64,000 nucleotides of DNA from Bacteroidaceae bacterium (GCA_017645655.1 JAGCNZ010000096.1:24187-88186), one strand, 5' to 3'; positions 27,952 to 57,682 are shown, numbered from the stretch's first letter. Program-made: numbers and translations. The notes: generated from the sequence alone by a model not told the origin.

Positions 27952-28086
27952 CACTGCGTTTGCAATCACGGCACGCTGTGTTTGCAAACATCACACGTGA
28001 TGTTTACAATTATTACACGTTATATTTAAAATATTACACGTGATATTTGAAATCATCCCACGGTGTGTTTTCAGACCTGACACGAT
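27952..28086. repeat. CACGTG-core phased repeat array, locus A4
   Basis: Cores CACGCT 27972, CACGTG 27994, CACGTT 28016, CACGTG 28037, CACGGT 28059, CACGAT 28081. Spacing 22/22/21/22/22. Confidence 0.8.
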
Positions 28087-28102
28087 ATAATAAAAACTGA
28101 AT

Positions 28103-40624: not shown

Positions 40625-41623
40625 TTAGAGCTTGTTGTTACTGCCAAGCACTTCCACAATCTTGTGGATGTACATCTTCTTCATGTTCTCGCGAGCGGGC
40701 TTCAAGTACTGGCGAGGATCGAAATCACCCGGCTTCTCGTCGAAGTGCTTGCGGATGGCAGCGGTCATGGCAAGGCGGCTGTCGCTGTCGATGTTGATCT
40801 TGCAGACTGCACTCTTGCTTGCCTCGCGAAGTTGCTCTTCGGGAATGCCTACTGCGTCGGGCAGCTTGCCGCCGTGAGCATTGATGGTGTCCACCTCGTC
40901 CTGAGGAACGGAGCTTGAGCCGTGCAGCACGATGGGGAATCCAGGCAGACGCTTCTCAATCTCGTGGAGAATGTCGAATGCCAATGGAGGAGGCACGAGC
41001 TTGCCTGTCTTCGGGTCGCGTGTGCACTGCTCGGGAGTGAACTTGTATGCACCGTGGCTTGTGCCGATAGAGATAGCCAGGCTGTCGCAACCGCTGCGGG
41101 TGATGAAATCAACAACTTCCTCGGGCTTTGTGTAGTGAGACACTTCGCTTGCAACTTCGTCCTCGACGCCTGCCAGTACACCCAGCTCTGCCTCTACGGT
41201 AACGTCGTGTGCGTGAGCATACTCTACCACCTGCTTGGTGATGCGGATGTTCTCCTCGTAGGGGAGAGAGCTTCCGTCGAACATCACGCTGGAGAAACCA
41301 TTGTCGATGCAGTCCTTGCAAAGCTCGAAGCTGTCGCCGTGGTCGAGGTGGAGAACAATCTGAGGCTTCTCACAACCGAGTTCCTTAGCGTACTCGACTG
41401 CACCCTGTGCCATGTAGCGCAGGATAGTGCCGTTAGCGTAGTTGCGTGCGCCTTTGCTGACCTGCATGATGACAGGAGACTTTGTCTCTACTGCAGCCTG
41501 CACGATAGCTTGCATCTGCTCGAGTGTGTTGAAGTTGAATGCGGGGATGGCATAGCCGCCAGCCACTGCCTTAGCGAACATCTCGCGAGTGTTCACCAGA
41601 CCGAGTTCTTTGTAACTTGTCAT
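40625..41623 (-). CDS. fba: Class II fructose-1,6-bisphosphate aldolase
   Basis: 332 aa. IPAFNFNTLEQ, VLHLDHGDS and PIVLHGSSSVP. Confidence 0.95.
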   Translation of the reverse strand: MTSYKELGLVNTREMFAKAVAGGYAIPAFNFNTLEQMQAIVQAAVETKSPVIMQVSKGARNYANGTILRYMAQGAVEYAKELGCEKPQIVLHLDHGDSFELCKDCIDNGFSSVMFDGSSLPYEENIRITKQVVEYAHAHDVTVEAELGVLAGVEDEVASEVSHYTKPEEVVDFITRSGCDSLAISIGTSHGAYKFTPEQCTRDPKTGKLVPPPLAFDILHEIEKRLPGFPIVLHGSSSVPQDEVDTINAHGGKLPDAVGIPEEQLREASKSAVCKINIDSDSRLAMTAAIRKHFDEKPGDFDPRQYLKPARENMKKMYIHKIVEVLGSNNKL

Positions 41624-41859: not shown

Positions 41860-42906
41860 TTACTTCATCTCCTTCACGATGTACGTCACCGTAGGCAAGT
41901 GGTCGCTGTAGCCGTTGAGCCATACGCCGCCGCTGGTCGTACGCTTCGGCGTGCCCTTGTACTTGCCGTCCTGCTGGATGAGGTAGTCGCGCTTGAAGAT
42001 ATGGTAGTTGTAGAGCGTCAGCTCCTTATATTCCTTTGTATCCTTCAGGTCGAGCATGTTGCGCGAGCAGACGATTTGGTCGAAGAGGTTCCATCCGCCC
42101 TGATACGACAGCGTGCCCTGTCCCTTTTTTCTGAGGATGTCCCACCACGGATTATAGAAGTCTCCCTCTTCCACATCTTTCATCTTGCGTCGTGCACCAA
42201 GGTACTTGGCCATCGACGTGTTGTCCGGGTCGTCATTCATATCGCCCATCACCATGATGTGCTGTGAGGGGTCGGCCATCCGGATGCTGTCTGTCAGCGC
42301 TCGTACCTGCTTGCCGCCCCAGTCGCGGAAGATACCTTCAGCACCTCGGCTCGGCCAGTGACAGACCACGACGGTCAGGTTGTCGCCAGCCAACTTGCCC
42401 TGCACGCAGAGGAACGGTCGGGTGGCATGCGACGTATCGCCGTTCTCATATTCATATAATTTATGGAAAGCCTTTGTCACTTGGAAAGCCTTAGGGTTGT
42501 AAAGGAGTGCGCAGTCCACACCTCTCTTGTCCGGTCCCTCGAAATGTATGTACTTGTAACCGCGCTGTTGCATGTTGGGCTGAGCGATAAGGTCGTCGAG
42601 CGCCTTGTCGTTCTCCACCTCGCTCACTCCGATAATGCTCGCTCCGTATGGCAACTTGTCCGTGCCCAAGTCACAAAGCGCACGGGCCATATTGGCAAGC
42701 TTGTTCGTGTACTTGTTCTCGTCCCAATGATACGAACCGTCGGGCAGGAAATCATAGTCGTTCTTTCCTGCATCGTGGCAAGTGTCGAAGAGGTTCTCCA
42801 AATTGTAGAAAGCAACGGCATGAACCATGAGCTTGCGGTTCTGCGCGCTGGTGTAGGCAGCGGACAAGAGTAGTGCTGCAACAATGGCAATGGATGTATG
42901 TTTCAT
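41860..42906 (-). CDS. Secreted endonuclease/exonuclease/phosphatase (EEP) family protein
   Basis: 348 aa with signal peptide ending TSAQ. AFYNLENLFD at the mature N-terminus, VVCHWPSRG, MGDMNDDP and GYSDHLPV are EEP catalytic motifs. Confidence 0.8.
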   Translation of the reverse strand: MKHTSIAIVAALLLSAAYTSAQNRKLMVHAVAFYNLENLFDTCHDAGKNDYDFLPDGSYHWDENKYTNKLANMARALCDLGTDKLPYGASIIGVSEVENDKALDDLIAQPNMQQRGYKYIHFEGPDKRGVDCALLYNPKAFQVTKAFHKLYEYENGDTSHATRPFLCVQGKLAGDNLTVVVCHWPSRGAEGIFRDWGGKQVRALTDSIRMADPSQHIMVMGDMNDDPDNTSMAKYLGARRKMKDVEEGDFYNPWWDILRKKGQGTLSYQGGWNLFDQIVCSRNMLDLKDTKEYKELTLYNYHIFKRDYLIQQDGKYKGTPKRTTSGGVWLNGYSDHLPTVTYIVKEMK

Positions 42907-42950
42907 GTTTTTTTGTGTTTTATCGAGTCAGCTTTCATTACTTCTCATTG

Positions 42951-42958
42951 CAAAGTTA
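42951..42958 (-). promoter_or_regulatory. -7 box (TAACTTTG on the minus strand) for the EEP gene
   Basis: The plus strand reads caaagtta, 45 nt upstream of ATG 42906. Confidence 0.45.
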
Positions 42959-43032
42959 ATGCTTTTTTGTGTAGAAAATGCAATTAACAAAAAAAATATG
43001 ACCTTACTTGCCGCAGATAGCATAATTTTTTA

Positions 43033-43040
43033 TAAGTTTG
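43033..43040 (+). promoter_or_regulatory. -7 box (TAAGTTTG) for the TonB-dependent receptor operon
   Basis: Lies 35 nt upstream of ATG 43075. Confidence 0.45.
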
Positions 43041-43074
43041 TGCCATAATAAACAAATTATAACACAAAATATAC

Positions 43075-45642
43075 ATGAAAATGAAACATCTGCTAATGGC
43101 GCTGACCCTTGTGGCGGCACCTCAAGTTCATGCACAGCCAGAAACGGCTGGCCTGGACACGCTGAGCACTGTGGAGCAAGAGTTGCAAACGGACGACAGC
43201 AACTTCACCTTTACCGAGTCGCAGCTCGGCGAGAACGACGACATGACGTCCGACGTCATTCGAATCAATTCCGCTACCAACGTCTATACAAGTCAGATTG
43301 GATGGACGTGGAGCGGCATCTGGTTCAAGTACCGTGCACTCGACAATGCCTACAACGACATCTACATGAATGGCGTGCAAGTCAACAATCCCGAGAACGG
43401 TAGATTCTCTTATTCAACAATCGGCGGCATGAATGACGCTGTCCGTAATAAAGACGATGTAAGTCCGTTCGAGACAAACAACTATTCGTTCAGCGGGTTG
43501 GGTGGAAGCAGCAACTACAACCTCAGAGCCAGCCAGATGCCGGCAGGGCATAAGGTGACTCTTTCGGGCGCCAACCGCAACTACACCCTGCGCGGCATGT
43601 ACAGCTACGGCACTGGCCTGAGCAAGGAAGGCTGGGCTTTCTTCGGAACAGTCGGCTATCGTTGGGCAAACATGCAGACGGCTGCCGTAAAGGGAACCTT
43701 CTACAACAGCCTCTCCTTCTTTATGGCTGTGCAGAAGATCATCAACGAGAAGCATTCGCTGAATCTCGCCGCTTGGGGCAACCCCACGGAAAGGGCTACG
43801 GCAGGTGCAAGCACAGACGAAGCAAACTGGCTCGCCAACGACTATCTCTACAATCCCTACTGGGGATATCAGGACGGCAAGAAGCGCGCGAGCCGCATTG
43901 TCAACAACTTCGAACCTAGCTTCCTCCTCACTTGGGACTATAACCTCAAGGAAGGCATGAAGCTCACCACCAGCGCTTTCTTGAAGTTCGCCGAGTATAA
44001 GAGCACCAAGCTTAATTATAGCGGCACCAATCCTCATCCCGACTACTGGAAGCGCTTCCCCTCTTACTATTATTATGTGTGGGACGACGACCCCAATAAA
44101 GAGCGCAGCTACGACGTTGATGCATTCTGGTCGAACTATAACTATTGGAAAGACGAGAGCTACAGACAGATTAACTTCGATGAGCTCTACTTTGCCAATA
44201 CGCAACTGAACAAGACTGGCGCTGATGCCATCTATTGGATAGAAGCACGCCACAACAATCATTTGATGACCAACTTGGCAAGCACTTACGAGTGGAACAT
44301 CAAACCCGGCGCAAAGTTCAGTGCAGGTGTCCAGTTGCTCAGCAACCGCGGCTCGCACTATAAGACTATCGACGACCTCCTGGGCGGTCAGTACTTCCAC
44401 AACACAAATACCTATCTTGTCGGCGACTATCAGGCGACTTCTACTGAGGCGATGTACGATGTGAATCATGGCTATCAGAGACTCATCGAGGGTGACCGCT
44501 ATGGTTACGACTACGACATATGGAATCAGGACGTCAAGTTGTGGACAGGTTTCAGCATGGATCGCGACATCGTCCACAGCTTCATCACCGGTAAGATTGG
44601 CGGAAGAAGAATGTGGCGCGAAGGTTTCATGCGCAACGGCCTCTTCCAGGATAACAGCTATGGTAAGAGCGAGAAGGCTCATTTCCTTGACGGCGGCTTG
44701 AAGATGGGAACGACAATCAACCTCGGCCGGGGGCATGCAATCAGTGCCGGCCTTGGTTATGAATACAAGGCTCCAGGGGCATCTGTTGCTTTCATGTGTC
44801 CCGAGATGAACAACGACTTTGTTCAAGACCTCGAGAACGAGAAGGTGCTTAGTGCTGAACTGGGTTATGCCATCAGCAACAAATGGTTCCGCCTGAACGT
44901 GAGCGGCTACTATTATCATATCAACGACGCTAACGAGTGGCAGCAGTTCTATAACGACGACAGCAATAGCTTCTCGTATAATAGCCTGACGGGAGTCAAG
45001 AAGGAATACTACGGCGTCGAGCTCGGCTTGAAGTTCAGGATAACCAGCAGCCTCGACCTCCTTGCTTTGGGTACCTATAGCGAAGCCAAATATATTGATG
45101 ACACGCAAGTCTATTGGATGAGCAGCACAACTGGCGAAATTAATCAGGAACTTTGCCACAACAAGGGAATGCGCCAAAGCGGCACGCCTCTGGCAGCTGC
45201 CAGCCTCGGCCTGAACTACCGCATCAAGCGTTGGTACCTCAACCTGACTGGTAACTATTACGACCGCATTTATCTCTCTTACAGCACGAACATGCGTTAT
45301 GAAAGGAACCTGAAGAATGCCGGACGCTATCATGGAGGCGAATACGATGTTCCTGCTCAGGCAAAAGGCAACGGAGGCTTTATGCTGGACGCAAGTATCG
45401 GTCGCCAGTTCAATGTGGCACATCATCCGCTTAGCGTCAACCTTCAGCTTTGCAACCTGACCAATCGCCGCAAGATTACCACAGGCGGTTACGAACAGAG
45501 CCGTAGTAACTACAGCGTTACAGAAACCGAAACAGGAAGCGCTGATCCTGTTACTATGCGTACTTACAACTTCGAGAAGAATGCCAAGAAGTTCTATGCT
45601 CTCGGCTTCAACTTCCTGCTCAACCTAAATTACAGGTTCTAA
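43075..45642 (+). CDS. TonB-dependent receptor-like outer-membrane beta-barrel (not SusC-type)
   Basis: 855 aa with signal peptide ending VHAQ. It has a plug-like KYRALDNAYNDIYMNGVQVNNPENG, a long beta-barrel, and a C-terminal LLNLNYRF ending in aromatic Phe. Confidence 0.7.
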   Translation: MKMKHLLMALTLVAAPQVHAQPETAGLDTLSTVEQELQTDDSNFTFTESQLGENDDMTSDVIRINSATNVYTSQIGWTWSGIWFKYRALDNAYNDIYMNGVQVNNPENGRFSYSTIGGMNDAVRNKDDVSPFETNNYSFSGLGGSSNYNLRASQMPAGHKVTLSGANRNYTLRGMYSYGTGLSKEGWAFFGTVGYRWANMQTAAVKGTFYNSLSFFMAVQKIINEKHSLNLAAWGNPTERATAGASTDEANWLANDYLYNPYWGYQDGKKRASRIVNNFEPSFLLTWDYNLKEGMKLTTSAFLKFAEYKSTKLNYSGTNPHPDYWKRFPSYYYYVWDDDPNKERSYDVDAFWSNYNYWKDESYRQINFDELYFANTQLNKTGADAIYWIEARHNNHLMTNLASTYEWNIKPGAKFSAGVQLLSNRGSHYKTIDDLLGGQYFHNTNTYLVGDYQATSTEAMYDVNHGYQRLIEGDRYGYDYDIWNQDVKLWTGFSMDRDIVHSFITGKIGGRRMWREGFMRNGLFQDNSYGKSEKAHFLDGGLKMGTTINLGRGHAISAGLGYEYKAPGASVAFMCPEMNNDFVQDLENEKVLSAELGYAISNKWFRLNVSGYYYHINDANEWQQFYNDDSNSFSYNSLTGVKKEYYGVELGLKFRITSSLDLLALGTYSEAKYIDDTQVYWMSSTTGEINQELCHNKGMRQSGTPLAAASLGLNYRIKRWYLNLTGNYYDRIYLSYSTNMRYERNLKNAGRYHGGEYDVPAQAKGNGGFMLDASIGRQFNVAHHPLSVNLQLCNLTNRRKITTGGYEQSRSNYSVTETETGSADPVTMRTYNFEKNAKKFYALGFNFLLNLNYRF

Positions 45643-45713
45643 TTGGGAGACACAAAACGACAATTGTTCAAGGCAAAGATTCTTATACATTATATATTAT
45701 ATATTTGAAAGCA

Positions 45714-46586
45714 ATGAAAAAACAAACATTCATCATAGCTCTTCTGGCAGGAGCGTTCGCTGTGACTTCTTGTCAGGACAGGGACTGGGAGGTTCCCGAG
45801 AGCCTCTCCACGCAGCCACCATACGGCAACAACAGTCTGGTGGCAGGCACCACAACGACTATTGCAGAGTTGCAGAATAGGTACGCAACAACCATAAAGA
45901 ATAGTAGTTATGAGCTCATCACCGATGACTTGTGGCTGCGTTGTGTCGTGACTGGCAACGATACTGGTGACAATATCTACAAGCAGATTTCTGTTCAAGA
46001 CGAGACTGCAGGCATCATCATTGGCATCAACGCTTCCGACCAGGGAGCTCTCATGCCCGTCGGTCAGAAGCTCCTCATCAACCTTAAGAACCTCTGCATA
46101 GGCGGATATGGAGAGATGGCGCAGCTTGGCACAAAATACTACAACAGCAATTACAGCGAATACCAGATAGGACGTATGGAGGTACCTTTCTGGCAAGAAC
46201 ACGTCCGACTCATCATGGATGGCACACCTGAGGCACAGGCCTTCGCTTCAATCAAGGTGGACACCATCGACTTCGATGCCAGCAAGACGATGGCCCAGCA
46301 GTGCGGCAGGGTGGTGCGCCTGAGTGGCGTGACCATCAGCAGAGACGGAACTCCTACCGTTGCACCAGACGATGGCTCGGTGAGTCTTGTCAGCAACTGC
46401 GTGAACCGTACCATCTCCGGAGGCAATGCAGGCAGCAAGTGCGTGCTTCGTACCAGCACGTATGCCGCCTTCAAGGGTGTGACGATTCCCACCACGCCGG
46501 TGGACATCTATGGCATCGCCACATACTATCGCGGGACATGGCAGATTCTTGCCCGTACGCAAACTGATTTGACTTGGACAAAATAA
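45714..46586 (+). CDS. Lipoprotein with OB-fold-like domain (resembles DUF5689)
   Basis: Lipobox AVTSC. TIAELQNRY...LRCVVTGNDTGDNIYKQISVQDETAGIIIGIN. The track start at 45705 is TTG; ATG 45714 is preferred. Confidence 0.5.
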   Translation: MKKQTFIIALLAGAFAVTSCQDRDWEVPESLSTQPPYGNNSLVAGTTTTIAELQNRYATTIKNSSYELITDDLWLRCVVTGNDTGDNIYKQISVQDETAGIIIGINASDQGALMPVGQKLLINLKNLCIGGYGEMAQLGTKYYNSNYSEYQIGRMEVPFWQEHVRLIMDGTPEAQAFASIKVDTIDFDASKTMAQQCGRVVRLSGVTISRDGTPTVAPDDGSVSLVSNCVNRTISGGNAGSKCVLRTSTYAAFKGVTIPTTPVDIYGIATYYRGTWQILARTQTDLTWTK

Positions 46587-46615
46587 AGAAAACAAACAAT
46601 AACACACATATCATT

Positions 46616-48328
46616 ATGAAAAAGACTTTCAAAACATTCGCACTCGTGTTGCTGACTGCTTTTGCTTTCAGCAGCTGTGTTGACGTACCGGCTCCTTACA
46701 ATCTGCCAGACAAGACTAGCAATACAGATGGAGACGGCGGTGGCTCTTCGTCCAGCGAGGGCACTCCTATCACATGTGCACAGGCTGTCGAGCTTACAAA
46801 CGCATTGGCAGATGGCGCAACATCTTCTGAGACTTATACCATCACTGGTTACATCACCGAAGTTGTTGGCGATGTTAGCCGCAATCAGCAGACCTTCTGG
46901 ATGGCCGACACCAAGAGTGGCGGCAGAGTCTTCGAGGCATATTGGGCAAACCTCCCTGAAGGTGTGACAGCCTTCACGGCAGGCACGAAGGTTAAGATTA
47001 CAGGTAAGCTGATGAAGTACGTGAATGCAAACAACGGCAACGTGATTGCCGAGATGAAGAACGCTATTGTTACAATCCTGGAAGACGATGGCAGTGGCAG
47101 TGGTGATACTCCTGCCGAGGGCACTGCAGTCACATGTGCTCAGGCTGCCGAATTGACAAATGCCCTTCCCGATGGCGGTACTTCAAGCGAGACTTATACC
47201 GTCACAGGTTACATCACTGAGGTTATTGGAAACGTTAGTCGCAACCAGCAGACCTTCTGGATGGCTGATACGCAGAATGGTGGCAGAGTCTTCGAGGCGT
47301 ATTATGCTAACCTTCCCGAAGGCGTAAGCGAGTTTGCAGTCGGCACAAAGGTAAAGATTACAGGCCAATTGATGAAGTACGTGAACAATAGTGGTCAGGT
47401 AACTCCTGAGATAAAGAACCCGACTGTCGTGATTCTTGAGCAGGGTGGTGGCGAGACACCTCCTCCTGCAGTGGATGGCATAGCAGTTACTTGCGCTGAG
47501 GCTGTTGAACTTACCAACGCACTTGCCGATGGCGGCACATCAGCTGACGCTTATACCGTCACAGGTTACATCACCGAAGTTGTTGGCAATGTCAGCCGCA
47601 ACCAACAGACCTTCTGGATGGCCGACACACAGGATGGTGGCAGAGTCTTCGAGGCTTATTATGCAAACCTGCCTGCAGGCGTCAGCGCATTCGCCGTTGG
47701 CATGAAGGTGAAGCTTACCGGTCAGCTGTTGAAGTATGTGAACAACACGAGCGGTCAGGTAACGCCGGAGATAAAGAATGGCGACGTCGTTGTTCTTGAG
47801 CAAGGTGGTGGCGATACGCCAGAGCCTCCGACTCCCGGTCCTGGCGGCGAGACTGTGTCAGATCTCGTGAACGGCGACTTCGAGAGTTGGGTAAGCGATG
47901 CAGAGCCTACGGGTTGGAAGTCGGCAAGCACCGCAAGCAATGCTACGCTGAGCAAGAGCACAGATGCTCGCAACGGCAGCTTCGCATGTATGATAGCTGC
48001 TCCGGGTTCTGCAAACAAGCGTCTCGCTACGCAGGAGATAACGCTCGAGGCTGGCTCGTACACCTTCTCGTTCTACGCAAGGTCGACCAGCGCGAGTCCC
48101 TGCCAGACGCGTGGTGGCTATGTGCCCATCAAGGATGACGGCACAGTAGATACATACAGGTATGGAGACTACACCGACATCAACAACAATGGTTGGACGC
48201 TTGTATCGTACGACTTCACGCTCGACGCTCCGACGACTCTTTGCCTGCTCGTCATGAATCCTAAAAACAGCAACTACTCGACCTCTCAGGACATCCTGGT
48301 CGACGATGCTACGCTGGTAAAGAACTAA
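46616..48328 (+). CDS. Lipoprotein with three tandem OB-fold-like domains of about 119 aa and a C-terminal CBM4/9-like jelly-roll
   Basis: Lipobox FSSC. The block (I/V)TCAQA.ELTNAL.DG.TS..(T/A)YT(I/V)TGYITEV(V/I)G(D/N)VSRNQQTFWMAD...GGRVFEAY.ANLP occurs three times. The tail begins DLVNGDFESW. ATG 46616 is preferred over TTG 46574. Confidence 0.6.
   Translation: MKKTFKTFALVLLTAFAFSSCVDVPAPYNLPDKTSNTDGDGGGSSSSEGTPITCAQAVELTNALADGATSSETYTITGYITEVVGDVSRNQQTFWMADTKSGGRVFEAYWANLPEGVTAFTAGTKVKITGKLMKYVNANNGNVIAEMKNAIVTILEDDGSGSGDTPAEGTAVTCAQAAELTNALPDGGTSSETYTVTGYITEVIGNVSRNQQTFWMADTQNGGRVFEAYYANLPEGVSEFAVGTKVKITGQLMKYVNNSGQVTPEIKNPTVVILEQGGGETPPPAVDGIAVTCAEAVELTNALADGGTSADAYTVTGYITEVVGNVSRNQQTFWMADTQDGGRVFEAYYANLPAGVSAFAVGMKVKLTGQLLKYVNNTSGQVTPEIKNGDVVVLEQGGGDTPEPPTPGPGGETVSDLVNGDFESWVSDAEPTGWKSASTASNATLSKSTDARNGSFACMIAAPGSANKRLATQEITLEAGSYTFSFYARSTSASPCQTRGGYVPIKDDGTVDTYRYGDYTDINNNGWTLVSYDFTLDAPTTLCLLVMNPKNSNYSTSQDILVDDATLVKN
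46757..47830 (+). repeat. Three tandem coding repeats (periods 360 and 357 nt)
   Basis: Repeat starts are read at 46757 (EGTPITC), 47117 (EGTAVTC) and 47474 (DGIAVTC). Confidence 0.85.
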
Positions 48329-48348
48329 CTTAATTGGTAAATAAAAGA

Positions 48349-49257
48349 ATGAAAAAGTTCGCTTTCATATCATTCCTCTTCCTTAGTCTGTGTCCGTCGC
48401 TTCGGGCTCAGCAATATGCCACGATACTCTATCGTCAGAGCGAAATGCCACGGGCAGTTGCTGTCACTGAGATAGATTCTGTCGTGGTGCGCGATGTGGC
48501 TGAGGTAGATGCTACGTATTTCGATACGCCCAAGGACACCGTCTATGTGGCACAAGTTCGCGAGTCGCATTGGAAAGGCAAGAAGGTGGCTTTCCTGGGC
48601 GACAGCATCACGCAGTATGCTGAGTATGTCAATGCCTATGCCAGCCTGACAGGCTGCGAGGCATTGAACTACGGCATCTCTGCCACGCACATGGCATCGA
48701 GGAACAATAGCGACACGAATGCTTTCGACAAGCGATACAACAAGATGCCGACACAGAGCAGGGTCGATATGGTCGTGGTCTTCGGAGGCACGAACGACTT
48801 CGGGCATACCAATACTGCTGAGTTCGGAGAGTTCTCCGACGGGCCGAAGGTGGGTAAGTACTCCTTCTATGCCGGCTTGCATCGCCTTTTCAAAGGTCTG
48901 CAAAACCGTTACTCGAACATCCCCGTCGTCATTATGCTGCCTCTTCATCACGGCACGGAGATTGACTGCCCGGAGTATGTGATTAACGGCACGACCATCA
49001 CTGAGGGTACTAATCCCACGACGGGCAAGACTTTCCGTGAGTATGTGAATGCCATCCGCGAGGTAGCCGCCTACTATTCCTTCATTGTGCTTGATGCTTA
49101 CAGCTACAGCAACCTCAGTCCCATGACTGAGATTGGCAGCGGCAGCAGTGGCTTCTTCCAGGACGGATTGCACCTCAATCAGGCTGGCGGCATGCGCTTG
49201 GCACGATGGATGTACCCGCAGCTGGAGGCTGTATACGAAATGTTCTACGACTTCTAA
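48349..49257 (+). CDS. SGNH/GDSL-type hydrolase
   Basis: Signal peptide. Block I FLGDSIT, block III FGGTNDF, block V DGLHLNQAG. ATG 48349 is preferred over TTG 48334. Confidence 0.7.
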   Translation: MKKFAFISFLFLSLCPSLRAQQYATILYRQSEMPRAVAVTEIDSVVVRDVAEVDATYFDTPKDTVYVAQVRESHWKGKKVAFLGDSITQYAEYVNAYASLTGCEALNYGISATHMASRNNSDTNAFDKRYNKMPTQSRVDMVVVFGGTNDFGHTNTAEFGEFSDGPKVGKYSFYAGLHRLFKGLQNRYSNIPVVIMLPLHHGTEIDCPEYVINGTTITEGTNPTTGKTFREYVNAIREVAAYYSFIVLDAYSYSNLSPMTEIGSGSSGFFQDGLHLNQAGGMRLARWMYPQLEAVYEMFYDF

Positions 49258-50151
49258 ATGCGAAAACTTCTCACATCTTCCCTTTTCCTCTTGACGTCCA
49301 TCCTCTACGCGTACGATGTAGAGGTGGACGGCATTTGCTATAACCTCCTTGGTACGAGCATGGCGTATGTCACCTACAGAGGTGGCGACATGTTCGAGCC
49401 GAATGGTTATTCCGGGGATGTCGTTGTGCCGTCACATATTGTCCACAACGGTTTCACCTACCGCATTTTTAATGTCGGCCCCAGTGCATTTGCCGATTGC
49501 GAGGGGCTGACGTCTGTCCAGCTGCCTTCTACGGTGCGAGGCGTCAGTGGAAGTGCGTTCCTTGGGTGTACCAACCTTCGTCAAGTCGCATTGCCGAGCG
49601 ACCTGCTTGGCTTGGGAGGCAGCGTTTTTGCGGGTTGCACGTCTCTGCAAGAGGTGTCTCTGCCGCGCCGTCTGGATGAAGTTGACACGCTGATGCTCTA
49701 TTGCTGCGCATCCCTGACATCGGTTGTCTTGCCCCATCGCGTCCGCAGAGTCTGCCAAGGGTCGCTTGTGCATCTGCCCTCGATGAGGCATCTCTACGTC
49801 TTTGCCTCCACGCCGCCTACGGCAGATCAGGGTGCCTTCACGCTGAAAGACCAGCAGCATTGCACCCTTCACGTCCCGCGAGAAGCCCTGCAGCAATACA
49901 AGCAATCGCCCATCTGGCGTGAGTTCTATCGCATCGTGGTGCTGGGCGACGCGGATTATGCTGCGCATGATTATCAGCGTGGCGACATCAACGATGATGG
50001 CAATGTGGACGCCGAGGACCTTGCTTTGCTGCGTCGCATCGTTGTCAGCCTGCCCGACGATTCAGCCGTACGTTGGGCAGCCGACATCAACGGCGATGGC
50101 AAAATCAATTCAGTTGATTACGTTTTGTTGTCGAAGAGCATTGGCGAGTGA
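49258..50151 (+). CDS. BspA-type LRR protein with C-terminal dockerin-like module
   Basis: 297 aa with a signal peptide. LRR_5 units (SAFADCEGLTSVQLPSTV...), and two EF-hand-like dockerin repeats DINDDGNVDAEDLALLRRIV and DINGDGKINSVDYVLLSKSI. Confidence 0.75.
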   Translation: MRKLLTSSLFLLTSILYAYDVEVDGICYNLLGTSMAYVTYRGGDMFEPNGYSGDVVVPSHIVHNGFTYRIFNVGPSAFADCEGLTSVQLPSTVRGVSGSAFLGCTNLRQVALPSDLLGLGGSVFAGCTSLQEVSLPRRLDEVDTLMLYCCASLTSVVLPHRVRRVCQGSLVHLPSMRHLYVFASTPPTADQGAFTLKDQQHCTLHVPREALQQYKQSPIWREFYRIVVLGDADYAAHDYQRGDINDDGNVDAEDLALLRRIVVSLPDDSAVRWAADINGDGKINSVDYVLLSKSIGE

Positions 50152-50336
50152 GTTGCCGCACGGCAACATACGAGTTTTCCAGGGCTGATTGCTCTTTGCT
50201 CCCTCGGAGCGAATCTCGTTGCCCAGGGACTGATATTCGGTTCACCCCATAGGTGGACCTTTTTGTCCTGTTTGCATTTTGTAACAAAAAGCATTCTTTT
50301 GCTTTCTTTTTGCTGTTTTTGCACACAACGTAACGT

Positions 50337-50480
50337 GCCGAAAAATGCGTCGAAACAGGGCAGATTTTCTGTTGCGGCGTGCTGTGTCGGAAAATATGGC
50401 ACGTTATATTTGAAATATTACACGTGATGTTTGAATTTTCACTACGCTGCGATTGCGGAAACGACACGCCAAAAAGTGTG
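50337..50480. repeat. CACGTG-core phased repeat array, locus A6 (degenerate edges)
   Basis: Cores AACGTG 50342, GGCGTG 50386, CACGTT 50410, CACGTG 50431, CACTACG 50450, CACGCC 50475. The CG dinucleotides are spaced 44/24/21/22/22. Confidence 0.7.
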
Positions 50481-50752
50481 CAAAAACGAGCAAAAATGAC
50501 TGGTTTTGCCAGGTGGAGATGGCAATTTGTCCATTGAAGATTGAAAGTCGAAGATGTGATGCGGCTGGTAACAGCCTGATACAGAATCGATTCTAAAACA
50601 CTTTCGTTCTAAGCGCTTCTTTTTATAAAAAGGTACAAAAGTGCCTCCGAGGGGATTTTAGGCGATTCTGGCGAGTCGGTCAAAAATGTGTGTGTAAGCA
50701 AAATGGTGAAAAAAGAAGCAAAGTGTCAGAAGCGTCATAATGAATCTTGGCG

Positions 50753-50792
50753 CGCGAAAAGCGGCAGGTTTGCATTGGAGCAAGCCTGCCGC
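50753..50792 (-). terminator. Hairpin plus T-run after the CotH/T9SS gene
   Basis: The minus strand reads GCGGCAGGC-ttgctccaatgcaa-ACCTGCCGC, followed by TTTTCG. Confidence 0.45.
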
Positions 50793-50853
50793 TATGTCGT
50801 TCTATGCGTGGCGTCACATTTTGTGTCGTCTCATCTCGCTCGCCCTCAGGGCG

Positions 50854-53800
50854 TTACTTTACCTTGACAAAGCGCTTTTGTCCACCCACAATGTAGATTC
50901 CCGTCTTTGTGATACGGTCGATGCGGGTGCCGCTGAGGGTGTAGATGGGCGCTTCCTCCAGGTCCTCGAGCCTTGTGGCAATGCCATCAGCATCGTCGAA
51001 GACGCTGACCGTGGCAGTTCCCTTCTTGTTGGAACCGTCGGTAGCCTTGGCGGTGATGATGGTCGTGCCGGAGGACAGGGCAGTGATAATGCCTTCGTCA
51101 ACCGTTGCTACCTCCTCGTTCGAGCTCGTCCAGGTGAGTGTCTTGACGGTTGCCGCCTCGGGCAGGATGCTGACGAGCAGCGTCGTATCGTTGCCTGCCA
51201 GCATGTCGATGACGTTCGGGCTCAGCTCGATGGAGGTGACGTATGTCTTGGCGAGGGTGACGTCGTATTCCACATCGCTTGCCCTCGTGCATATGCCATC
51301 TGCAGTAGCGAAGCACTGATTGCGTATTTGGTAGGTTCCTCCAGCGAAGTTATCTGCTCCGGCCAGGGTGAAGGTGAGGGCAGTGCCCGTCGTGGCACCG
51401 AGGTTCTCGTTGCCTGGAGCGTAGACGATGATGTGTGCTCCGTTAAGCATCGGGAGGCAGATGGTGTTGTGAGCAGCCGTGTTGACTCTCGTGTTGAAGT
51501 CGAGACTGCCTTGCTGTATCGATAGGCCTTGCGAGAGGATGATGTCAGCTTCGTAGGCTGTCGCGGCTCGGCTCGTGTTCAGCCATACCGTCACCTTGCG
51601 TGTGCCGCTGGCTTTGACGGATGCATTGCTTGAATAGAGCGTTGCCTCGAGTTCCTGGGTGCCGAGCGGCACCTCGTTGAGGATGCGACGTACCGTGACG
51701 ACGTCTGCCACGTCGATGCGGCTGTCGAGGTTGGCATCGGCATTGATGACTTCGAATCCCGCAGGCTCGTCTCCCGTCAGGTACGCCGCTATCCATTCGG
51801 CATCCGTCTCGTCGAGCACTCCATTGCTGTTCACGTCGCCAGCCAGGTTGCTCACGTTGTAGTAAACGCCCGCATCGTTCTTAAGTACCACGAGGTGCGT
51901 GGCATCGAAGGTCGGATAAGCATCCTCGCCAAGCGTCTGATACCAGATGGGCTCCAGGGTTATGCCGTTGTTGAGCATATAGCAGAGTTTGCCGCTTGTC
52001 ACGTCGTCGCTGGTGATGCGGTTCACCTGCGTGGTCGACGTGCTGTAGCAATTCACGGCGCTGGCTCCTCCTCTGTAGAAGTCGTTGCGGTAGTTATAGC
52101 CTTCCACGGTGCCGATGTTGTAGCAGTTCTGTAGCGTCGCGTTTGTTCCCATCCATCCACAGATGGCTGCGCTCTCGCTGCTGCCGCTGACGTTGCCAGT
52201 GTTGTAGCAGTTGTAGAAGAAGAATGTGCTGACTGCACCCTTGTTGCAGCCGATGATGCCGCCCGCATTGTAACCGCTTGCCGTCACGTTAGCCTCGTTG
52301 CCCACGCGCGAGAAGGTCACGTTGCCTGCCGTCGTGGAACCGCCTGCCAGCCCGACATAATTGTTTCCCTCGATGGAGCAGGTGCTGTCGAGAATCAGGT
52401 TGCTGATGGACGCGCCTCCACCCACAGCGCCGAAGAGGCCAGTGTAGTCTCCTCCTGTGACATGTAGGTTGCTGATGCGATGCCCTTGTCCGTCGAAGAG
52501 ACCACGGAAGGGCCTCGAACTGGTGCCAATCGGCGTGAACTGATCATTGTAGTCAGCCATGTCGATGTCGTTCTCAAGATATGCGTTGCTGTACTGCGCA
52601 CCTTCCGCAACGGCCTCGGCAAGCTCGATTATCTGCTCGGGCGATGTGATGAAGTATGTGGAGTCGGTGTAAAGCGTGCCCGGGTTATAGCCGAGGTAAT
52701 TGTCAATCCAGTTCAGTCGGGTAGGGATGTAGCTGCGTAGCACATCCACTTCCGCCTCGAAAGAACCGAGCGCGGAAACGTTCTGGTGAACACGTTGATT
52801 GAGGATTGGCCATCGAATGAAGTTGAGGTTAGCGGACGCTTCTATCTCCGTTGCCATGCTGTCGACGTAGTCCACGAGCGTCTTCTCATCAAGAGAGCCT
52901 TCCTTTCTATTGTCCCTCCACAACTGATTGAGCATTTGGTCTGCAGCACCGTCGCTGAGGACGCGGTTGACAAACGAACGCATGTCGCCCGCACAACTGC
53001 CGCCACGGAATGCCCAGTCGCTGCGTCCGTTGACTGGATAGATGCGTTCGTCGTTGTCGAATGCCAGGTCGAAGTCCCAGCAGGGAGATACATGGAACTG
53101 ATCCTCCAGGCGCTCCTTATACATGTACGTGCTCCAGTAGGTGTCCATGTTGCCCGAGAACTCGCCAACGATGAAGTGCTTGAGGAACGACTCCACGTCG
53201 AGATACTTGCGGAAACCGTTTTCCGGGTCGGTATAGTTGCTTGCAAAGAGAGCTGACTCCATCAGGTTGAAGTGCCCCTTGATGTAGTTGTGCTGCTCTG
53301 TCGTGATGTCGTCGTCGCCCGGGTGCTTGATGGTTACCGGGTTGCCCCGGTTGCTGCTGAACCAACTCGTCTCCTGGCTGGCGTATGCATCAACCTCGAC
53401 AAGATAGCCACCGGTCAGCATCGGCTCTTCGATGTCGTCGGGCGTCATCTCTGTGATAGGCACACGATGCGGGTCCACGGAAATCTGGTCGCAGAGCTGG
53501 TAGCAACCCTTGTATTCGCCATTCATGATGACGTCCACGGGTTGTGCCCACGGCGTGTATGGCAATCCCAGACGCTTGCTCACCTCGAAGGCAAGGCAGT
53601 TACGCATGAGAGTCTTGTCGCCGTAGTTGTTGATGAGCGTCCACTTCTTGGCTTTCGCCGGACTCTCCATTGCCGAACCTCTAAGCATGTGATGGCTCTT
53701 GCCGTCGGCAAACTTAATGCGCCACGGCTTCTTCGGGAAACCCCAGGATGCGTTGCCTCTGCCTCGAGCTGTGATGGGATACTCCTGGATGCGGGTGCCA

Positions 53801-54417
53801 CCGTCGTAGGTAATCGTGATGTTCGACGGTATCTCATTGACCTTGTCTTGAGGATCACTGCCCGTGGAGGTGTGTATGCTGACCGTCGGCAGGTTGGTTA
53901 TTTGGTACCATTGGGTATCGTCGCCCTCGCCCTCGTATCCATAGAATTCGAGTTCAGCGATGTTGCAGCGTGCGTCGTTCGGTCCGACGTAACGCACATA
54001 TCGGAAGCCTCGCGAGACAGGCACGTCGGCATAATCCATCTTTCTGGCTGTGCCGGTGTTGGGTATGAGATAAAGCGGGACAGCATCAAGGAAATCGGGA
54101 CTGTTGCTGCCTTCGAAGACAGCAAGTTGAACTCGTCCAGTCTGGCTGGTGCGAGGGCTCCAACCTACAGAGGTGATGACATGAGGCGTGCCCAGGTCGA
54201 GTCCTACCCACGTGTTTGAGCGTCCCATGGAGGCATAGAAAGTGTCATAGTCACCGTCGAAAGCATCGGCAGGTGTATTGACTGTCGTGCTCGATTGGCT
54301 GGTGTTGTAGTCTATGTTTGGCGAGCCGATAGGGGTGCCGCTTAGTTTCGTGGAAGTTTGTGCGAAACTTTGCATCACTGCAAATAGCAGAAGTGATATG
54401 GTATTTAGTCTTTTCAT
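50854..54417 (-). CDS. Multidomain secreted protein: F5/8 type C (discoidin), CotH kinase-like, GLUG repeats, dockerin-like, Big_2 and T9SS C-terminal domain
   Basis: CotH motifs (ARGRGNASWGFPKKPWRIKF; LINNYGDKTLMRNCLAFEVSKRLGL; GEYKGCYQLCDQI; CWDFDLAFDND). GLUG/NCYN.G modules. GDVNSNGVLDETDAEWIAAYL and DANLDSRIDVADVVTVRRIL. Big_2 (LTWTSSNEEVATV). C-terminus PIYTLSGTRIDRITKTGIYIVGGQKRFVKVK. ATG 54417 is preferred because 54435 is TTG and only 5 nt from the -7 box. Confidence 0.8.
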   Translation of the reverse strand: MKRLNTISLLLFAVMQSFAQTSTKLSGTPIGSPNIDYNTSQSSTTVNTPADAFDGDYDTFYASMGRSNTWVGLDLGTPHVITSVGWSPRTSQTGRVQLAVFEGSNSPDFLDAVPLYLIPNTGTARKMDYADVPVSRGFRYVRYVGPNDARCNIAELEFYGYEGEGDDTQWYQITNLPTVSIHTSTGSDPQDKVNEIPSNITITYDGGTRIQEYPITARGRGNASWGFPKKPWRIKFADGKSHHMLRGSAMESPAKAKKWTLINNYGDKTLMRNCLAFEVSKRLGLPYTPWAQPVDVIMNGEYKGCYQLCDQISVDPHRVPITEMTPDDIEEPMLTGGYLVEVDAYASQETSWFSSNRGNPVTIKHPGDDDITTEQHNYIKGHFNLMESALFASNYTDPENGFRKYLDVESFLKHFIVGEFSGNMDTYWSTYMYKERLEDQFHVSPCWDFDLAFDNDERIYPVNGRSDWAFRGGSCAGDMRSFVNRVLSDGAADQMLNQLWRDNRKEGSLDEKTLVDYVDSMATEIEASANLNFIRWPILNQRVHQNVSALGSFEAEVDVLRSYIPTRLNWIDNYLGYNPGTLYTDSTYFITSPEQIIELAEAVAEGAQYSNAYLENDIDMADYNDQFTPIGTSSRPFRGLFDGQGHRISNLHVTGGDYTGLFGAVGGGASISNLILDSTCSIEGNNYVGLAGGSTTAGNVTFSRVGNEANVTASGYNAGGIIGCNKGAVSTFFFYNCYNTGNVSGSSESAAICGWMGTNATLQNCYNIGTVEGYNYRNDFYRGGASAVNCYSTSTTQVNRITSDDVTSGKLCYMLNNGITLEPIWYQTLGEDAYPTFDATHLVVLKNDAGVYYNVSNLAGDVNSNGVLDETDAEWIAAYLTGDEPAGFEVINADANLDSRIDVADVVTVRRILNEVPLGTQELEATLYSSNASVKASGTRKVTVWLNTSRAATAYEADIILSQGLSIQQGSLDFNTRVNTAAHNTICLPMLNGAHIIVYAPGNENLGATTGTALTFTLAGADNFAGGTYQIRNQCFATADGICTRASDVEYDVTLAKTYVTSIELSPNVIDMLAGNDTTLLVSILPEAATVKTLTWTSSNEEVATVDEGIITALSSGTTIITAKATDGSNKKGTATVSVFDDADGIATRLEDLEEAPIYTLSGTRIDRITKTGIYIVGGQKRFVKVK

Positions 54418-54439
54418 TTCGTTGTTTTTGTTCAACCTG

Positions 54440-54583: not shown

Positions 54584-55936
54584 ATGAGTAGGCTTATTCG
54601 AATTGCCCTGTTGTGCTTCCTGCCGCTATATGCTTTGACGGCTCACTGCCAGGGCGACATGACGCGCGAAGTGTCAGCTGACACCGTGATGTGGCCCGTG
54701 CCGCAACTCGACCCGAGCTGGATGCTGGAGTATTTGCCTCACAACAACGCCAACCACAATGTCTATGTCTATAAGGACAAGCTTTACGACGACCTCTTTA
54801 CTCGCACCAAGGGATGGAACGGCGGCGATGGTGTACAGACGACGGCATTGCCTGGAGGCAACGTCTTCTGGAGCTTCAACGATAGCTTCTATGGTGTCGC
54901 GACGGGTAAGCCAACCAGGATTCGCAAGTCGTGCAACTTCCCTCGCAACAGCATCATGGTGCAAACGCCGGGCGACGACGGATTGCCGGGCACGAAGACG
55001 AGCAACTTCAAATGGCTTGCCGACTGGGTGCAGCGCTCGAGCGCTTCGTCGAGTGGCTACTACCATGCCCGCACACACCTCCGTCACCCGAAAGGTGAGA
55101 AGACGGAGGCGCAGATCAGGAGTGGCGAGACTGACCAGACATACCTCTATTGGGCAGGAGACGGTACGGTGGTGGACGGCCAATTGCAAGTCCTATGGGC
55201 AGGTGTCTATAATGGTTCCGAGAACCTCATGCAGAGCGACAACAGGGCTCTGGCTATCTACTCGCTTGAGGGCACGCCGGGTAGCTCGACATATCTCCAG
55301 TTGTTGAGTGTCGACCATGACTTCTTCGCGCAGGACCCGATTGGATACGGGCAGACGCTCTGGGAAGACGAGGACGGTCACACCTACCTCTATGCCTGCA
55401 ATCAGTTCAAGAAGAACCCTGAGGACGTGCTGAACACATCTTCGCCGGTTGTTGCCCGCTCCGCCACGCACGACCTTCGCTCTGCTTGGGAATACTATGT
55501 TGCCGATGCCAACGGAACCTTCCACTGGCAGAGCACTTATCCGACAAGTGCGGAGGTGAACCGCTCGGCCATCACCTCGCGCAGCGTTTCGACTGCCTGG
55601 GTCTTCAAGGACGGCGATTGGTACTACATGACTGCACAGGGCTATGTCTTTTCCAAACAGCTTTACATCATGCGAAGCCGCTACCCATGGGGACCTTTCG
55701 AGGAGTGCCATCAGCTCTGGACTATGCCGTGGGTGCTCGACAAGACGGGCGTAAGGACGTACGGCAAGTTCTATATGCCGCACCTCCATCAGTCGCTGTC
55801 ACGTCAGGGTGAGCTCGTCTTTTCCACCAATACTGACTGCGAGAACTGGAACGACAACTTCAATTCGAACGGCTCGGCCGACTTCTACCGGCCTTACTTC
55901 TTCCGCATCTACAACTGGAAGGCCATTTTCGAGTGA
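54584..55936 (+). CDS. Secreted DUF4185/DUF5005-like beta-propeller protein (putative glycoside hydrolase)
   Basis: 450 aa with a signal peptide. TKGWNGGDGVQTTALPGGNVFWSFNDSFYG resembles the DUF4185 N-terminal signature. The assignment is from memory of that motif. Confidence 0.45.
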   Translation: MSRLIRIALLCFLPLYALTAHCQGDMTREVSADTVMWPVPQLDPSWMLEYLPHNNANHNVYVYKDKLYDDLFTRTKGWNGGDGVQTTALPGGNVFWSFNDSFYGVATGKPTRIRKSCNFPRNSIMVQTPGDDGLPGTKTSNFKWLADWVQRSSASSSGYYHARTHLRHPKGEKTEAQIRSGETDQTYLYWAGDGTVVDGQLQVLWAGVYNGSENLMQSDNRALAIYSLEGTPGSSTYLQLLSVDHDFFAQDPIGYGQTLWEDEDGHTYLYACNQFKKNPEDVLNTSSPVVARSATHDLRSAWEYYVADANGTFHWQSTYPTSAEVNRSAITSRSVSTAWVFKDGDWYYMTAQGYVFSKQLYIMRSRYPWGPFEECHQLWTMPWVLDKTGVRTYGKFYMPHLHQSLSRQGELVFSTNTDCENWNDNFNSNGSADFYRPYFFRIYNWKAIFE

Positions 55937-55970
55937 ATGGCGACCGACGTCTGGTAAATGTAAATTGAGT

Positions 55971-56801
55971 ATGAACATGTCAAGATTTCTTCGTCACAAT
56001 ACCTTAAGCATCTGCACTCTGCTGGCTGCATTCTGTTGCGTGTTGAGTTCCTGCTACAAACTCATCTCCACCTTTGCCCCGGAGGAAGTGGCGCCAGGGC
56101 AGACGTTCGAGGTTAGCTTCACTGTCGTCGATGATGGTTCTGACACGCAGAACTTTGTGACGGACTGGAGCTATGCAGGCATCAGGGTGCCCAATGGCTG
56201 GACGGTGACCGTGCCAGCGGGAGCGCACAGGCAGTTCGCGGAGGATTGGGTCTACTATCAGGACGGCTCTCAGGTCAATAGTTCTCATGACATGGAGCCT
56301 TGCGCGAAGCTTACCCAGTTCTATAATTCCGCCTGTCCCAGGTCGGGTTATACGTGGTCGGGCTTCAAAAGCGTGACCAAGATACCGAAGAACATCTCTG
56401 CCTGCTGGCGGAACGGATGTGACAGCATCCGCATCACGTTCCTCATCACTGTGCCCGAGGACGCCAATCCTGGCCGCTATCACATCGACTTCATGGGGGG
56501 CGACGAAGAGGACGACGCAGGTATCGACAAGTACAGCAACCTTTCGTCTGCCAAGGATTCGCGTCTTTTCCACGTCGGCACCGCCAGCGGCTCCTACGTA
56601 GACAACCGCAATGCAGCCCTTGCTCGCACAGTCGTCGTGACCGACGCGACAGGCCTGAAGGATGTTCGGAATATGGAATTGTCTGACGCAAAGCAACTTA
56701 AAGATGGCAGAGGTCGCATTTATGACCTCTCCGGCCGGCGTGTCTCGGCAAGACAGGAAGGCATAGTCATCGAAAACGGTAAAAAGAAATACAAGCAATG
56801 A
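55971..56801 (+). CDS. Hypothetical surface protein with lipobox-type signal and T9SS C-terminal sorting domain
   Basis: MNMSRFLRHNTLSICTLLAAFCCVLSSC. The C-terminus GRIYDLSGRRVSARQEGIVIENGKKKYKQ. ATG 55971 was chosen; the longer track ORF overlaps the previous gene. Confidence 0.5.
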   Translation: MNMSRFLRHNTLSICTLLAAFCCVLSSCYKLISTFAPEEVAPGQTFEVSFTVVDDGSDTQNFVTDWSYAGIRVPNGWTVTVPAGAHRQFAEDWVYYQDGSQVNSSHDMEPCAKLTQFYNSACPRSGYTWSGFKSVTKIPKNISACWRNGCDSIRITFLITVPEDANPGRYHIDFMGGDEEDDAGIDKYSNLSSAKDSRLFHVGTASGSYVDNRNAALARTVVVTDATGLKDVRNMELSDAKQLKDGRGRIYDLSGRRVSARQEGIVIENGKKKYKQ

Positions 56802-57682
56802 AAGCGTTTCTCGTCATGCTCCTATGCCTGCCTGCTTACTCGCAAAGCATGGTGGTAAACACCACTTCGGGCAGTTCGACACCCTATCCGATACGTCAGG
56901 TGGAGCCCCTCACCTTTACCGACGAAACCGTAGAACCCGTTCCGCCATCGGCCAAGATACAGATGAAGCGCAGCATCGTCTTCCTCGGCCACAGCATTTG
57001 GCGCAACGATAACTACTTCGTGAGGTACCAGAACTCGGGTACTTTCGTGACCCCCTTCACTGGCACCTTCAAGGGGAGAGGCTATCAGACGCTGCTCCAG
57101 GAGGTCTTCGACTTTCCCGCCGTCTATTCGCCAGGCCCGGATGGAGGCTATAGTGGCTATTCCCTGGGCGGCACCAGCGCTACCGACGACAAGAGCATCG
57201 CCGTAGTAGCCCAGCAGTCGGACAACGGCTGGCCGAGCATCCAGAACGCCATCTGGACGATAGACTTCATTACAAACGACTTCAAGCGGAACGTTCCCCT
57301 CGGCACTTACGCAGACTACAAGAGCGCGACAGGCCCGTCAACATTCTACGGAGCGGTGCGTCAGTTGTACGACAAGATTAAGGAACTTTCCGGAAGCGAC
57401 GTCATCATCGTCTTCAGCAACGCCACTAAGCGCAACAACTCGAACTATACCAGCACCAGCCAGAACACTGTTGGGTGCACGCTTGCCGACTATGAATTGG
57501 CCTTGCTGACCTGCGCCGCGGCAAACACTAACTGGTATTTCGTGGACCAGAACCGTCTTTCGGGCATCACCGACGAGAACCTCCCCGCCGTGACAGCCGA
57601 TGGTCTTCACCTCAACAACCTCGGCTACAAGATGGCCGTCCAACCCTGGATAGCCGTCCTGCGAACGCTGTCCGATAAATGA
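56798..57682 (+). CDS. SGNH/GDSL-type hydrolase
   Basis: Its ATG overlaps the previous stop as ATGA. It has a signal peptide, FLGHSIW, TNDF and DGLHLNNLGY. Confidence 0.65.
   Translation: MKAFLVMLLCLPAYSQSMVVNTTSGSSTPYPIRQVEPLTFTDETVEPVPPSAKIQMKRSIVFLGHSIWRNDNYFVRYQNSGTFVTPFTGTFKGRGYQTLLQEVFDFPAVYSPGPDGGYSGYSLGGTSATDDKSIAVVAQQSDNGWPSIQNAIWTIDFITNDFKRNVPLGTYADYKSATGPSTFYGAVRQLYDKIKELSGSDVIIVFSNATKRNNSNYTSTSQNTVGCTLADYELALLTCAAANTNWYFVDQNRLSGITDENLPAVTADGLHLNNLGYKMAVQPWIAVLRTLSDK

Follow-up and report, generated by a model that had tools for sequence, protein, structure and literature searches.

The 64,000-nucleotide stretch of Bacteroidaceae bacterium DNA analysed here (GCA_017645655.1, JAGCNZ010000096.1:24187-88186; hereafter the window) carries a six-gene locus at positions 41,860 to 50,151, which is probably the Prevotellaceae version of the ddb-type outer-membrane system of Bacteroidota for exogenous nucleic acid. 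The locus encodes a nuclease candidate of the endonuclease/exonuclease/phosphatase (EEP) family, a barrel with the fold of TonB-dependent transporters, a DUF5689 lipoprotein, a lipoprotein with OB-type repeats and a CBM4_9-like domain, an SGNH hydrolase, and a leucine-rich repeat (LRR) protein with a dockerin. An earlier note on this DNA had proposed capture and uptake of extracellular nucleic acid, and this is now supported by published homologous systems and by the comparative genomics reported here, because the core of the locus is conserved, nucleases and DeoC recur beside the barrel-DUF5689 pair, and the repeats match OB families. The system itself was already published between 2021 and 2025, and no new system is described. 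The distinguishing features of the window are a barrel without N-terminal extension, a conserved OB-array lipoprotein, and SGNH and LRR/dockerin genes replacing a surface nuclease.

An open reading frame (ORF) check and the Pfam domains placed the six genes where the earlier note had them:

41860-42906, minus strand: EEP-family nuclease candidate (PF19580 Exo_endo_phos_3, Pfam)
43075-45642, plus strand: DdbC-like outer-membrane barrel, 855 aa (Foldseek); start of the gene callers at 43081 (853 aa)
45705-46586, plus strand: DUF5689 lipoprotein, DdbD-like (PF18942); likely ATG start at 45714
46616-48328, plus strand: lipoprotein with three OB units and a CBM4_9-like domain (Pfam, tandem repeat, AlphaFold)
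46756-47814, plus strand, within the preceding gene: DNA array of period 360 encoding OB units 1-3 (about aa 49-166, 169-285 and 288-404)
47864-48325, plus strand, within the same gene: CBM4_9-like beta-sandwich, about aa 417-570 (Pfam, AlphaFold)
48349-49257, plus strand: SGNH/GDSL hydrolase with a type-I signal peptide (PF13472 Lipase_GDSL_2)
49258-50151, plus strand: BspA-type LRR and dockerin type I protein (PF13306, PF00404)

Components of the locus

The 855-aa barrel had no Pfam or NCBIfam match even at E <= 10, and a sequence search of the PDB returned no match for it. Its AlphaFold2 model had a mean predicted local distance difference test score (pLDDT) of 69.7 and a predicted template-modelling score (pTM) of 0.72. 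When the model was compared with the PDB by Foldseek, the top 50 matches were all TonB-dependent transporters, with a best E of 3e-22 and TM-scores, normalised by target length, of up to 0.70. The modelled protein has the fold of TonB-dependent transporters; the 22-stranded class is an assignment by structure match and not a rigorous count of strands. A search found 2897 homologues; NCBI gives the relatives the name 'TonB-dependent receptor', and the named matches obtained all came from metagenome-assembled genomes or Prevotella. Both results bear out the TonB-dependent receptor-like barrel of the earlier note. Its statement that a SusD partner is missing also stands: the locus has no SusD-like gene, and none of its genes matched a SusD or SusC/RagA family in Pfam or NCBIfam.

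The window barrel showed no CarboxypepD_reg N-terminal extension in Pfam. Most of its best 150 relatives have about 75 extra N-terminal residues, which in the relatives scanned match CarboxypepD_reg and in some cases also Plug. Full-length identity to relatives bearing CarboxypepD_reg and/or Plug is 31-32%, and these relatives share their NCBI name with RA0C_RS04915 of Riemerella anatipestifer. The family profile retrieved 1960 representative clusters, each at 50% identity, and reaches CarboxypepD_reg barrels adjoining DUF5689 genes at E ~1e-160. Residues ~45-150 of the window barrel align with the Plug-matching region of two relatives (P0265, E = 8e-9; P0250, E = 1e-4). A candidate TonB box is the near-invariant motif FTFTESQLGE at aa 44-53 of the 855-aa ORF (42-51 of the 853-aa form), whose E53 is shared by 90% or more of the sequences.

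The protein encoded next matched DUF5689 (PF18942) with 181 bits and E = 3e-53 and has the lipobox VTSC, in agreement with the DUF5689-like lipoprotein noticed earlier behind the barrel. The NCBIfam family of the Riemerella lipoprotein M949_1556 matched it weakly (E = 6e-22, below the cut-off), and a sequence search of the PDB yielded no match. Pfam detected no DUF5017 domain in the window proteins. In the lipoproteins of the locus acidic residues follow the lipid-anchor cysteine (CQDRD, CVDVP), not strictly fitting the published export signal C(x/xx)(D/E)(D/E).

The third plus-strand gene contains the three tandem domain copies that had been seen before: the array at 46756-47814 has a period of 360 nt and 3.0 copies, and the protein units are 70-84% identical to each other. 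In the AlphaFold model (pLDDT ~80 per domain) each unit is predicted with confidence to be an all-beta domain with one N-terminal helix. The window repeats scored 19.4 bits against the OB-fold family tRNA_anti-codon (PF01336), below its cut-off of 27, and the repeat protein gave a sub-threshold Pfam match to DUF4131, which we take to be the N-terminal domain of ComEC. Of 30 diverse units, 17 match PF01336 at E <= 0.01. One orthologue (L035) passes the Pfam cut-offs with 60 bits for tRNA_anti-codon (cut-off 27, three stretches) and 41.6 bits for CBM_4_9, and many homologues have precomputed matches to PF01336 or PF13742. Against the PDB the repeat profile gave marginal matches only, to single-stranded-DNA-binding proteins (E = 0.02-0.03). 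Judged by these profile matches, they are probably nucleic-acid-binding OB folds. The suggestion that they are related to the DUF5689 domain was not confirmed, and we rejected a relation in sequence, as hhalign returned a probability of ~1% with a shallow as well as with a more diverse profile.

The C-terminal domain of the same protein passed the Pfam cut-off for CBM_4_9 (30.4 bits, cut-off 25.9). It also dominates the Foldseek result of the whole repeat protein, where this beta-sandwich matches CBM4/16/22, so that the CBM4/9-like domain was correctly recognised. Because the domain also occurs in orthologues whose next gene encodes an Endonuclease_NS, we regard it as part of the nucleic-acid system and not as a glycan marker.

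As a separate observation, metagenome assemblies (runs X1, X4, X7 and X9) break inside the OB array 46756-47814, and a low-depth X7 contig skips 378 nt of it. The skip may reflect strains with another copy number or an assembly error.

The EEP enzyme matched PF19580 over its full length (E = 4e-92). Residues and lipoboxes were counted in 86 homologues, in which N35, E37, H183, D222, N224, D276, D335 and H336 are invariant. A match to the NCBIfam family of ExeM/NucH-type enzymes was weak (E = 1.3e-8; 34 bits vs a cut-off of 300), and no match was found by sequence search of the PDB. The protein is a nuclease candidate with a signal peptide and intact catalytic residues, its activity being predicted. 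A lipobox is missing in 75 of the 86 homologues, and members of the family typically have a type-I signal peptide. As the Pfam domain covers residues 30-345 of 348, there is no room for a tail of the type IX secretion system (T9SS). With a type-I signal peptide, without a lipobox and without such a tail the enzyme is therefore most likely periplasmic, which is the placement of DdbB; secretion beyond the periplasm, as claimed at first, was not confirmed.

Conservation of the core and recurrence of nucleases

In a scan of one genome per species 496 genomes were found to encode a barrel relative. The best 80 of these 496, with barrel identities of 53-86%, were analysed and their gene order was read by tblastn with the window proteins; seven distant gene contexts were sampled in addition across the diversity of the barrel family. 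All of the 80 loci are from metagenome-assembled genomes of uncultured rumen or gut Prevotellaceae, and the window contig and its nearest relatives derive from gut metagenomes, bovine ones included.

The order EEP (-), barrel (+), DUF5689 (+) and repeat lipoprotein (+) is kept in essentially every sufficiently long locus. The neighbourhood is thus conserved in other genomes as a syntenic four-gene core in ~80 Prevotellaceae species genomes. EEP and barrel genes point away from each other in ~78 of the 80 loci, and the DUF5689 gene lies directly downstream of the barrel in 80/80 related loci and 7/7 distant contexts. Once the profile search for the repeat had been iterated three times, a protein with one to four repeat copies was seen directly behind DUF5689 in 81 of ~86 loci; the 120 closest homologues have two to four copies each. 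A fructose-bisphosphate aldolase gene (40625-41623, -) adjoins the EEP gene and does likewise in nearly all 80 related loci, with 80-99% identity. Thus the locus occupies a stable chromosomal position and does not lie on a mobile element.

Of the 62 more distant Prevotellaceae loci, 48 encode a lipoprotein of the DNA/RNA non-specific endonuclease family (Endonuclease_NS; PF01223, E = 1e-40 to 1e-46) directly behind the repeat protein. The lipoboxes inspected in these nucleases are followed by acidic residues, and four motifs (CGDD, CSSDD, CNDD and CNKDD) fit the published export signal. An Endonuclease_1 gene was present in 29 loci as well, 25 from Prevotellaceae and four from distant contexts. 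Homologues of Endonuclease_NS and Endonuclease_1 were absent from loci L001-L020 and from the whole 64-kb window.

Five of the seven distant contexts have Exo_endo_phos_3, Endonuclease_1 or Endonuclease_NS beside the barrel-DUF5689 pair, and one of these five has DeoC (deoxyribose-phosphate aldolase) in addition; in the remaining two no secreted nuclease adjoins the pair. The nucleases that flank the pair in distant relatives hence belong to three unrelated families. One genome has an Exo_endo_phos_3 domain fused to the barrel N-terminus, i.e. on the periplasmic side, with a DUF5689 gene next to it. In distant loci (L087, L089, L092, L093, L094) the slot of the OB-repeat protein is usually filled by DUF6359, which is encoded separately or as part of the DUF5689 protein. 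Weak matches of the repeat profile to two DUF6359 proteins in a tiny search set hint that DUF6359 may be a diverged version of this OB module.

The last two genes of the locus were identified correctly by the earlier note, the SGNH hydrolase by Lipase_GDSL_2 (PF13472, E = 4e-16) and the LRR/dockerin protein by LRR_5 (PF13306, E = 5e-18) and Dockerin_1 (PF00404, E = 1.5e-12). The latter also has a weak NCBIfam match to HupY/LrrG. At this position both occur in the closest clade only (L003-L020, barrel at least 77% identical), where they occupy the slot that in most relatives is taken by the surface Endonuclease_NS lipoprotein. They are clade-specific accessories outside the conserved system, any link of the SGNH protein to the DNA system being hypothetical.

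Known systems and competing explanations

In Bacteroides thetaiotaomicron ddbABCDEF is needed for the depletion of exogenous DNA and for the production of uracil and xanthine in mice (Sharan et al., PNAS 2025, PMC12478041); in strain VPI-5482 the locus is BT3560-3563 (PMC8851478). Three of the products, DdbA, DdbB and DdbF, are nucleases. The TonB-dependent transporter of the system is DdbC, which the DUF5689 protein DdbD is predicted to cap; DdbD is also predicted to resemble the HIN domain of p202, which binds DNA. DdbB (WP_008767132.1), with its type-I signal peptide, was placed in the periplasm, and DdbE (WP_146072611.1) is a lipoprotein of unknown function (PMC12478041). Loci anchored by DdbC fall into the subtypes Bt1, Bt2, Pv1 and Pv2, with Pv2 lacking a secreted nuclease. 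DdbC homologues were defined by BLASTP with E <= 1e-15, identity > 50% and coverage > 75% to a Bt1/Bt2/Pv1/Pv2 query, the queries being WP_008762511.1, WP_055220680.1, WP_005843284.1 and WP_117829583.1 (PMC12478041).

The window shares with ddb a TonB-dependent-type barrel that has a DUF5689 lipoprotein directly behind it, a nuclease next to the barrel that carries a type-I signal peptide (DdbB position), a further lipoprotein downstream (DdbE position) and an organisation like that of a polysaccharide utilization locus (PUL) without SusD or glycoside hydrolases. The lack of a secreted nuclease is shared with subtype Pv2. On the other hand, the window barrel lacks the CarboxypepD_reg extension, the EEP gene is divergent in the window and co-directional in ddb, the lipoprotein EEP nucleases DdbA/DdbF of Bt1 have no equivalent in the window locus, and the SGNH and LRR/dockerin genes are additional. 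The lipoprotein at the DdbE position, matched to DdbE by position alone, consists of three OB folds and the CBM4_9-like domain.

The R. anatipestifer homologues of DdbC and DdbD are RA0C_RS04915 and RA0C_RS04920; natural transformation requires each of the two, and a ddbB-like gene adjoins them (PMC8459023). A tonBA mutant of R. anatipestifer lost transformation without a defect in iron uptake (PMC8383284). Like the window, this organism has the pair of outer-membrane barrel and DUF5689 lipoprotein with a DdbB-like nuclease as a neighbour and no surface nuclease. In contrast to the window its barrel has CarboxypepD_reg, its DUF5689 protein has an extra DUF5017 domain, and no OB-repeat lipoprotein was reported there. 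Furthermore, the function demonstrated in R. anatipestifer is transformation.

A PUL of the SusC/SusD type likewise combines a TonB-dependent barrel, surface lipoproteins encoded behind it and a periplasmic hydrolase in a compact operon. The window differs in having no SusD-like protein, no SusC/RagA signature in the barrel and no carbohydrate-active enzymes, the associated hydrolases being nucleases. The statement of the earlier note that the architecture departs from canonical PULs holds as far as SusD and SusC/RagA are concerned; the architecture is not new, however, having been published in 2021-2025. ExeM/NucH-type nucleases resemble the window in combining an EEP catalytic domain with OB-type nucleic-acid-binding modules, which in the window are separate proteins predicted to reside in different compartments.

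For the uptake of nucleic acid we favor the following scheme, in which we infer the cellular locations, DNA binding by the window proteins, the transported species and the physiological purpose, while the activities (DNA depletion, nuclease action, transformation and its TonB requirement) are taken from the published homologues. The DUF5689 and OB-repeat lipoproteins, presumably at the cell surface, would capture extracellular DNA and possibly RNA. The DUF5689 protein would cap the barrel as SusD caps SusC and hand the DNA over. The barrel would pass DNA or its fragments into the periplasm at the expense of TonB energy, and there the EEP nuclease would cut it for onward salvage of nucleotides and bases. 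As the clade of the window lacks a surface nuclease in the locus, it would have to rely on fragments produced by rumen enzymes or import longer DNA.

Several points weigh against this scheme. The window barrel has no Pfam match to Plug or TonB_dep_Rec, its residues 1-143 were modelled at low pLDDT, and its plug and TonB box are putative. Its likeness to DdbC is indirect, by way of family properties and the DUF5689 partner, and the likeness of the EEP and OB-repeat proteins to DdbB and DdbE is indirect as well. A lipoprotein nuclease is found neither in the locus of this clade nor in the 64-kb window. The EEP superfamily also includes phosphatases and sphingomyelinases. The fusion of an EEP domain to the barrel is a single sequence on one contig and carries little weight. 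The operon structure of 43075-50151 is a prediction from DNA. Finally, the CBM4_9-like domain, the SGNH esterase and the CotH/DUF5005 neighbours described below could suggest a glycan.

The main rival, which we consider rather unlikely, is that the locus provides the outer-membrane step of natural transformation as in Riemerella, so that long DNA is delivered to ComEC-dependent import and recombination and does not serve nutrition. This would agree with the requirement for each of the homologous barrel and DUF5689 genes in R. anatipestifer (PMC8459023), with the Riemerella locus having only a DdbB-like nuclease and no surface nuclease (PMC12478041), and with the missing Endonuclease_NS lipoprotein in the clade of the window. 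Yet gut Bacteroidales with ddb gave inconsistent results on DNA uptake, and the locus is catabolic there (PMC12478041). In addition, most of the Prevotellaceae relatives add a non-specific surface endonuclease, which would shred incoming DNA, and no competence genes are among the scanned ORFs of the 64-kb window.

Very unlikely is an atypical glycan-utilisation locus in which the barrel imports an oligosaccharide, the CBM4_9 and OB-like domains bind it and the SGNH enzyme removes ester groups. The CBM_4_9 score above the Pfam cut-off and the CBM4/16/22-like fold would fit, as would an SGNH hydrolase inside the operon and, downstream, the DUF5005 gene and that of another GDSL enzyme. However, the core is devoid of SusD, glycoside hydrolase, lyase and carbohydrate esterase, and it is nucleases that recur as partners from lineage to lineage, with DeoC in one context. 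A glycan PUL was rejected as the main explanation, since the CBM-like domain co-occurs with nucleases and the SGNH gene is specific to the closest clade. It is also highly improbable that the locus mainly remodels a matrix of extracellular DNA in biofilms or on feed particles, or serves adhesion via the LRR/dockerin protein, with import being secondary: although BT3560-3563 of B. thetaiotaomicron VPI-5482, a region whose synteny was reported in Prevotella, affects bile-dependent biofilm through its DNase BT3563 (PMC8851478) and BspA-type LRR proteins, to which the weak HupY/LrrG match points, are adhesins, the window locus lacks a surface DNase, its sole nuclease carries a type-I signal peptide, and the LRR/dockerin gene was added recently and in this clade only.

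Surroundings of the locus and biological meaning

The elements recognised outside the coding regions are:

42907-43074, no strand: divergent intergenic region with two TAnnTTTG boxes (motif matches only)
42951-42958, minus strand: Bacteroidota-type -7 box, TAnnTTTG (motif match only)
43033-43040, plus strand: Bacteroidota-type -7 box, TAnnTTTG (motif match only)
50239-50268, plus strand: terminator-like hairpin (50239-50259) with a T-run, 88 nt past the last gene

The boxes to which promoters had been ascribed at 42951 (-) and 43033 (+) are present as motif matches; the whole window contains 45 TAnnTTTG boxes vs 25.6 expected. With the start codons of the earlier note its gaps of 62, 29, 20 and 0 nt between the plus-strand genes are correct, and the barrel-DUF5689 gap becomes 71 nt if the ATG of the gene callers at 45714 is used. 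In this gap lies a further box, TATATTTG, at 45700-45707 (+), which overlaps the TTG start of the earlier note and could be an internal promoter or due to chance. The hairpin at 50239, suggestive by position alone, is a plausible end of the operon; the number of terminator-like sites in the region is at chance level. An Rfam search of the locus found no family. The 700 nt between the convergent LRR/dockerin and CotH genes (50152-50853) contain no convincing coding ORF, a TAnnTTTG box at 50405 (+) and terminator-like hairpins, and no Rfam family matches there.

The convergent gene at 50854-54435 (-) encodes a 1193-aa protein with F5/8 type C, CotH kinase-like, dockerin type I and Big_2 domains. 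Its C-terminus resembles a T9SS sorting tail, judging from weak tblastn similarity to that of a T9SS-type nuclease, and a CotH homologue lies on the opposite strand in several close relatives. Both adjacent genes, LRR and CotH, thus carry dockerin modules, which to our knowledge are unusual for Bacteroidota. Just past the CotH gene, 54584-57682 (+) comprises genes for a DUF5005 protein (E = 1e-141) and for another GDSL/SGNH hydrolase as well as an unannotated ORF. This hydrolase is only a distant relative of the SGNH protein of the locus, with 25% identity over 149 aa. In function, the SGNH and LRR/dockerin genes of the locus may be part of this CotH/DUF5005 cluster rather than of the DNA system. 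Elsewhere in the window, ORFs of 1185, 540 and 427 aa at 31686-35243 (-), 28034-29656 (-) and 29559-30842 (+) have no Pfam match at E <= 1e-5.

Taken together, the locus would extend a recently described system for DNA utilization and uptake, known from Bacteroides and Phocaeicola of the human gut, to Prevotellaceae of the rumen and gut. The lipoprotein with tandem OB units and a CBM-like domain emerges as a conserved fourth component and a candidate surface DNA receptor. We regard it as decidedly unlikely that the rumen clade, in losing Endonuclease_NS, gaining SGNH and LRR/dockerin genes in its slot and retaining an OB array of variable length (one to four units in the related loci), shifted from shredding and eating DNA to the capture of long DNA with high avidity and its import. 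If true, it would mean a pilus-independent, TonB-driven natural transformation in uncultured rumen Prevotellaceae, possibly tethered by dockerin. With its surface nuclease replaced, this one clade lends itself to a natural comparison between feeding on DNA and transforming with it.

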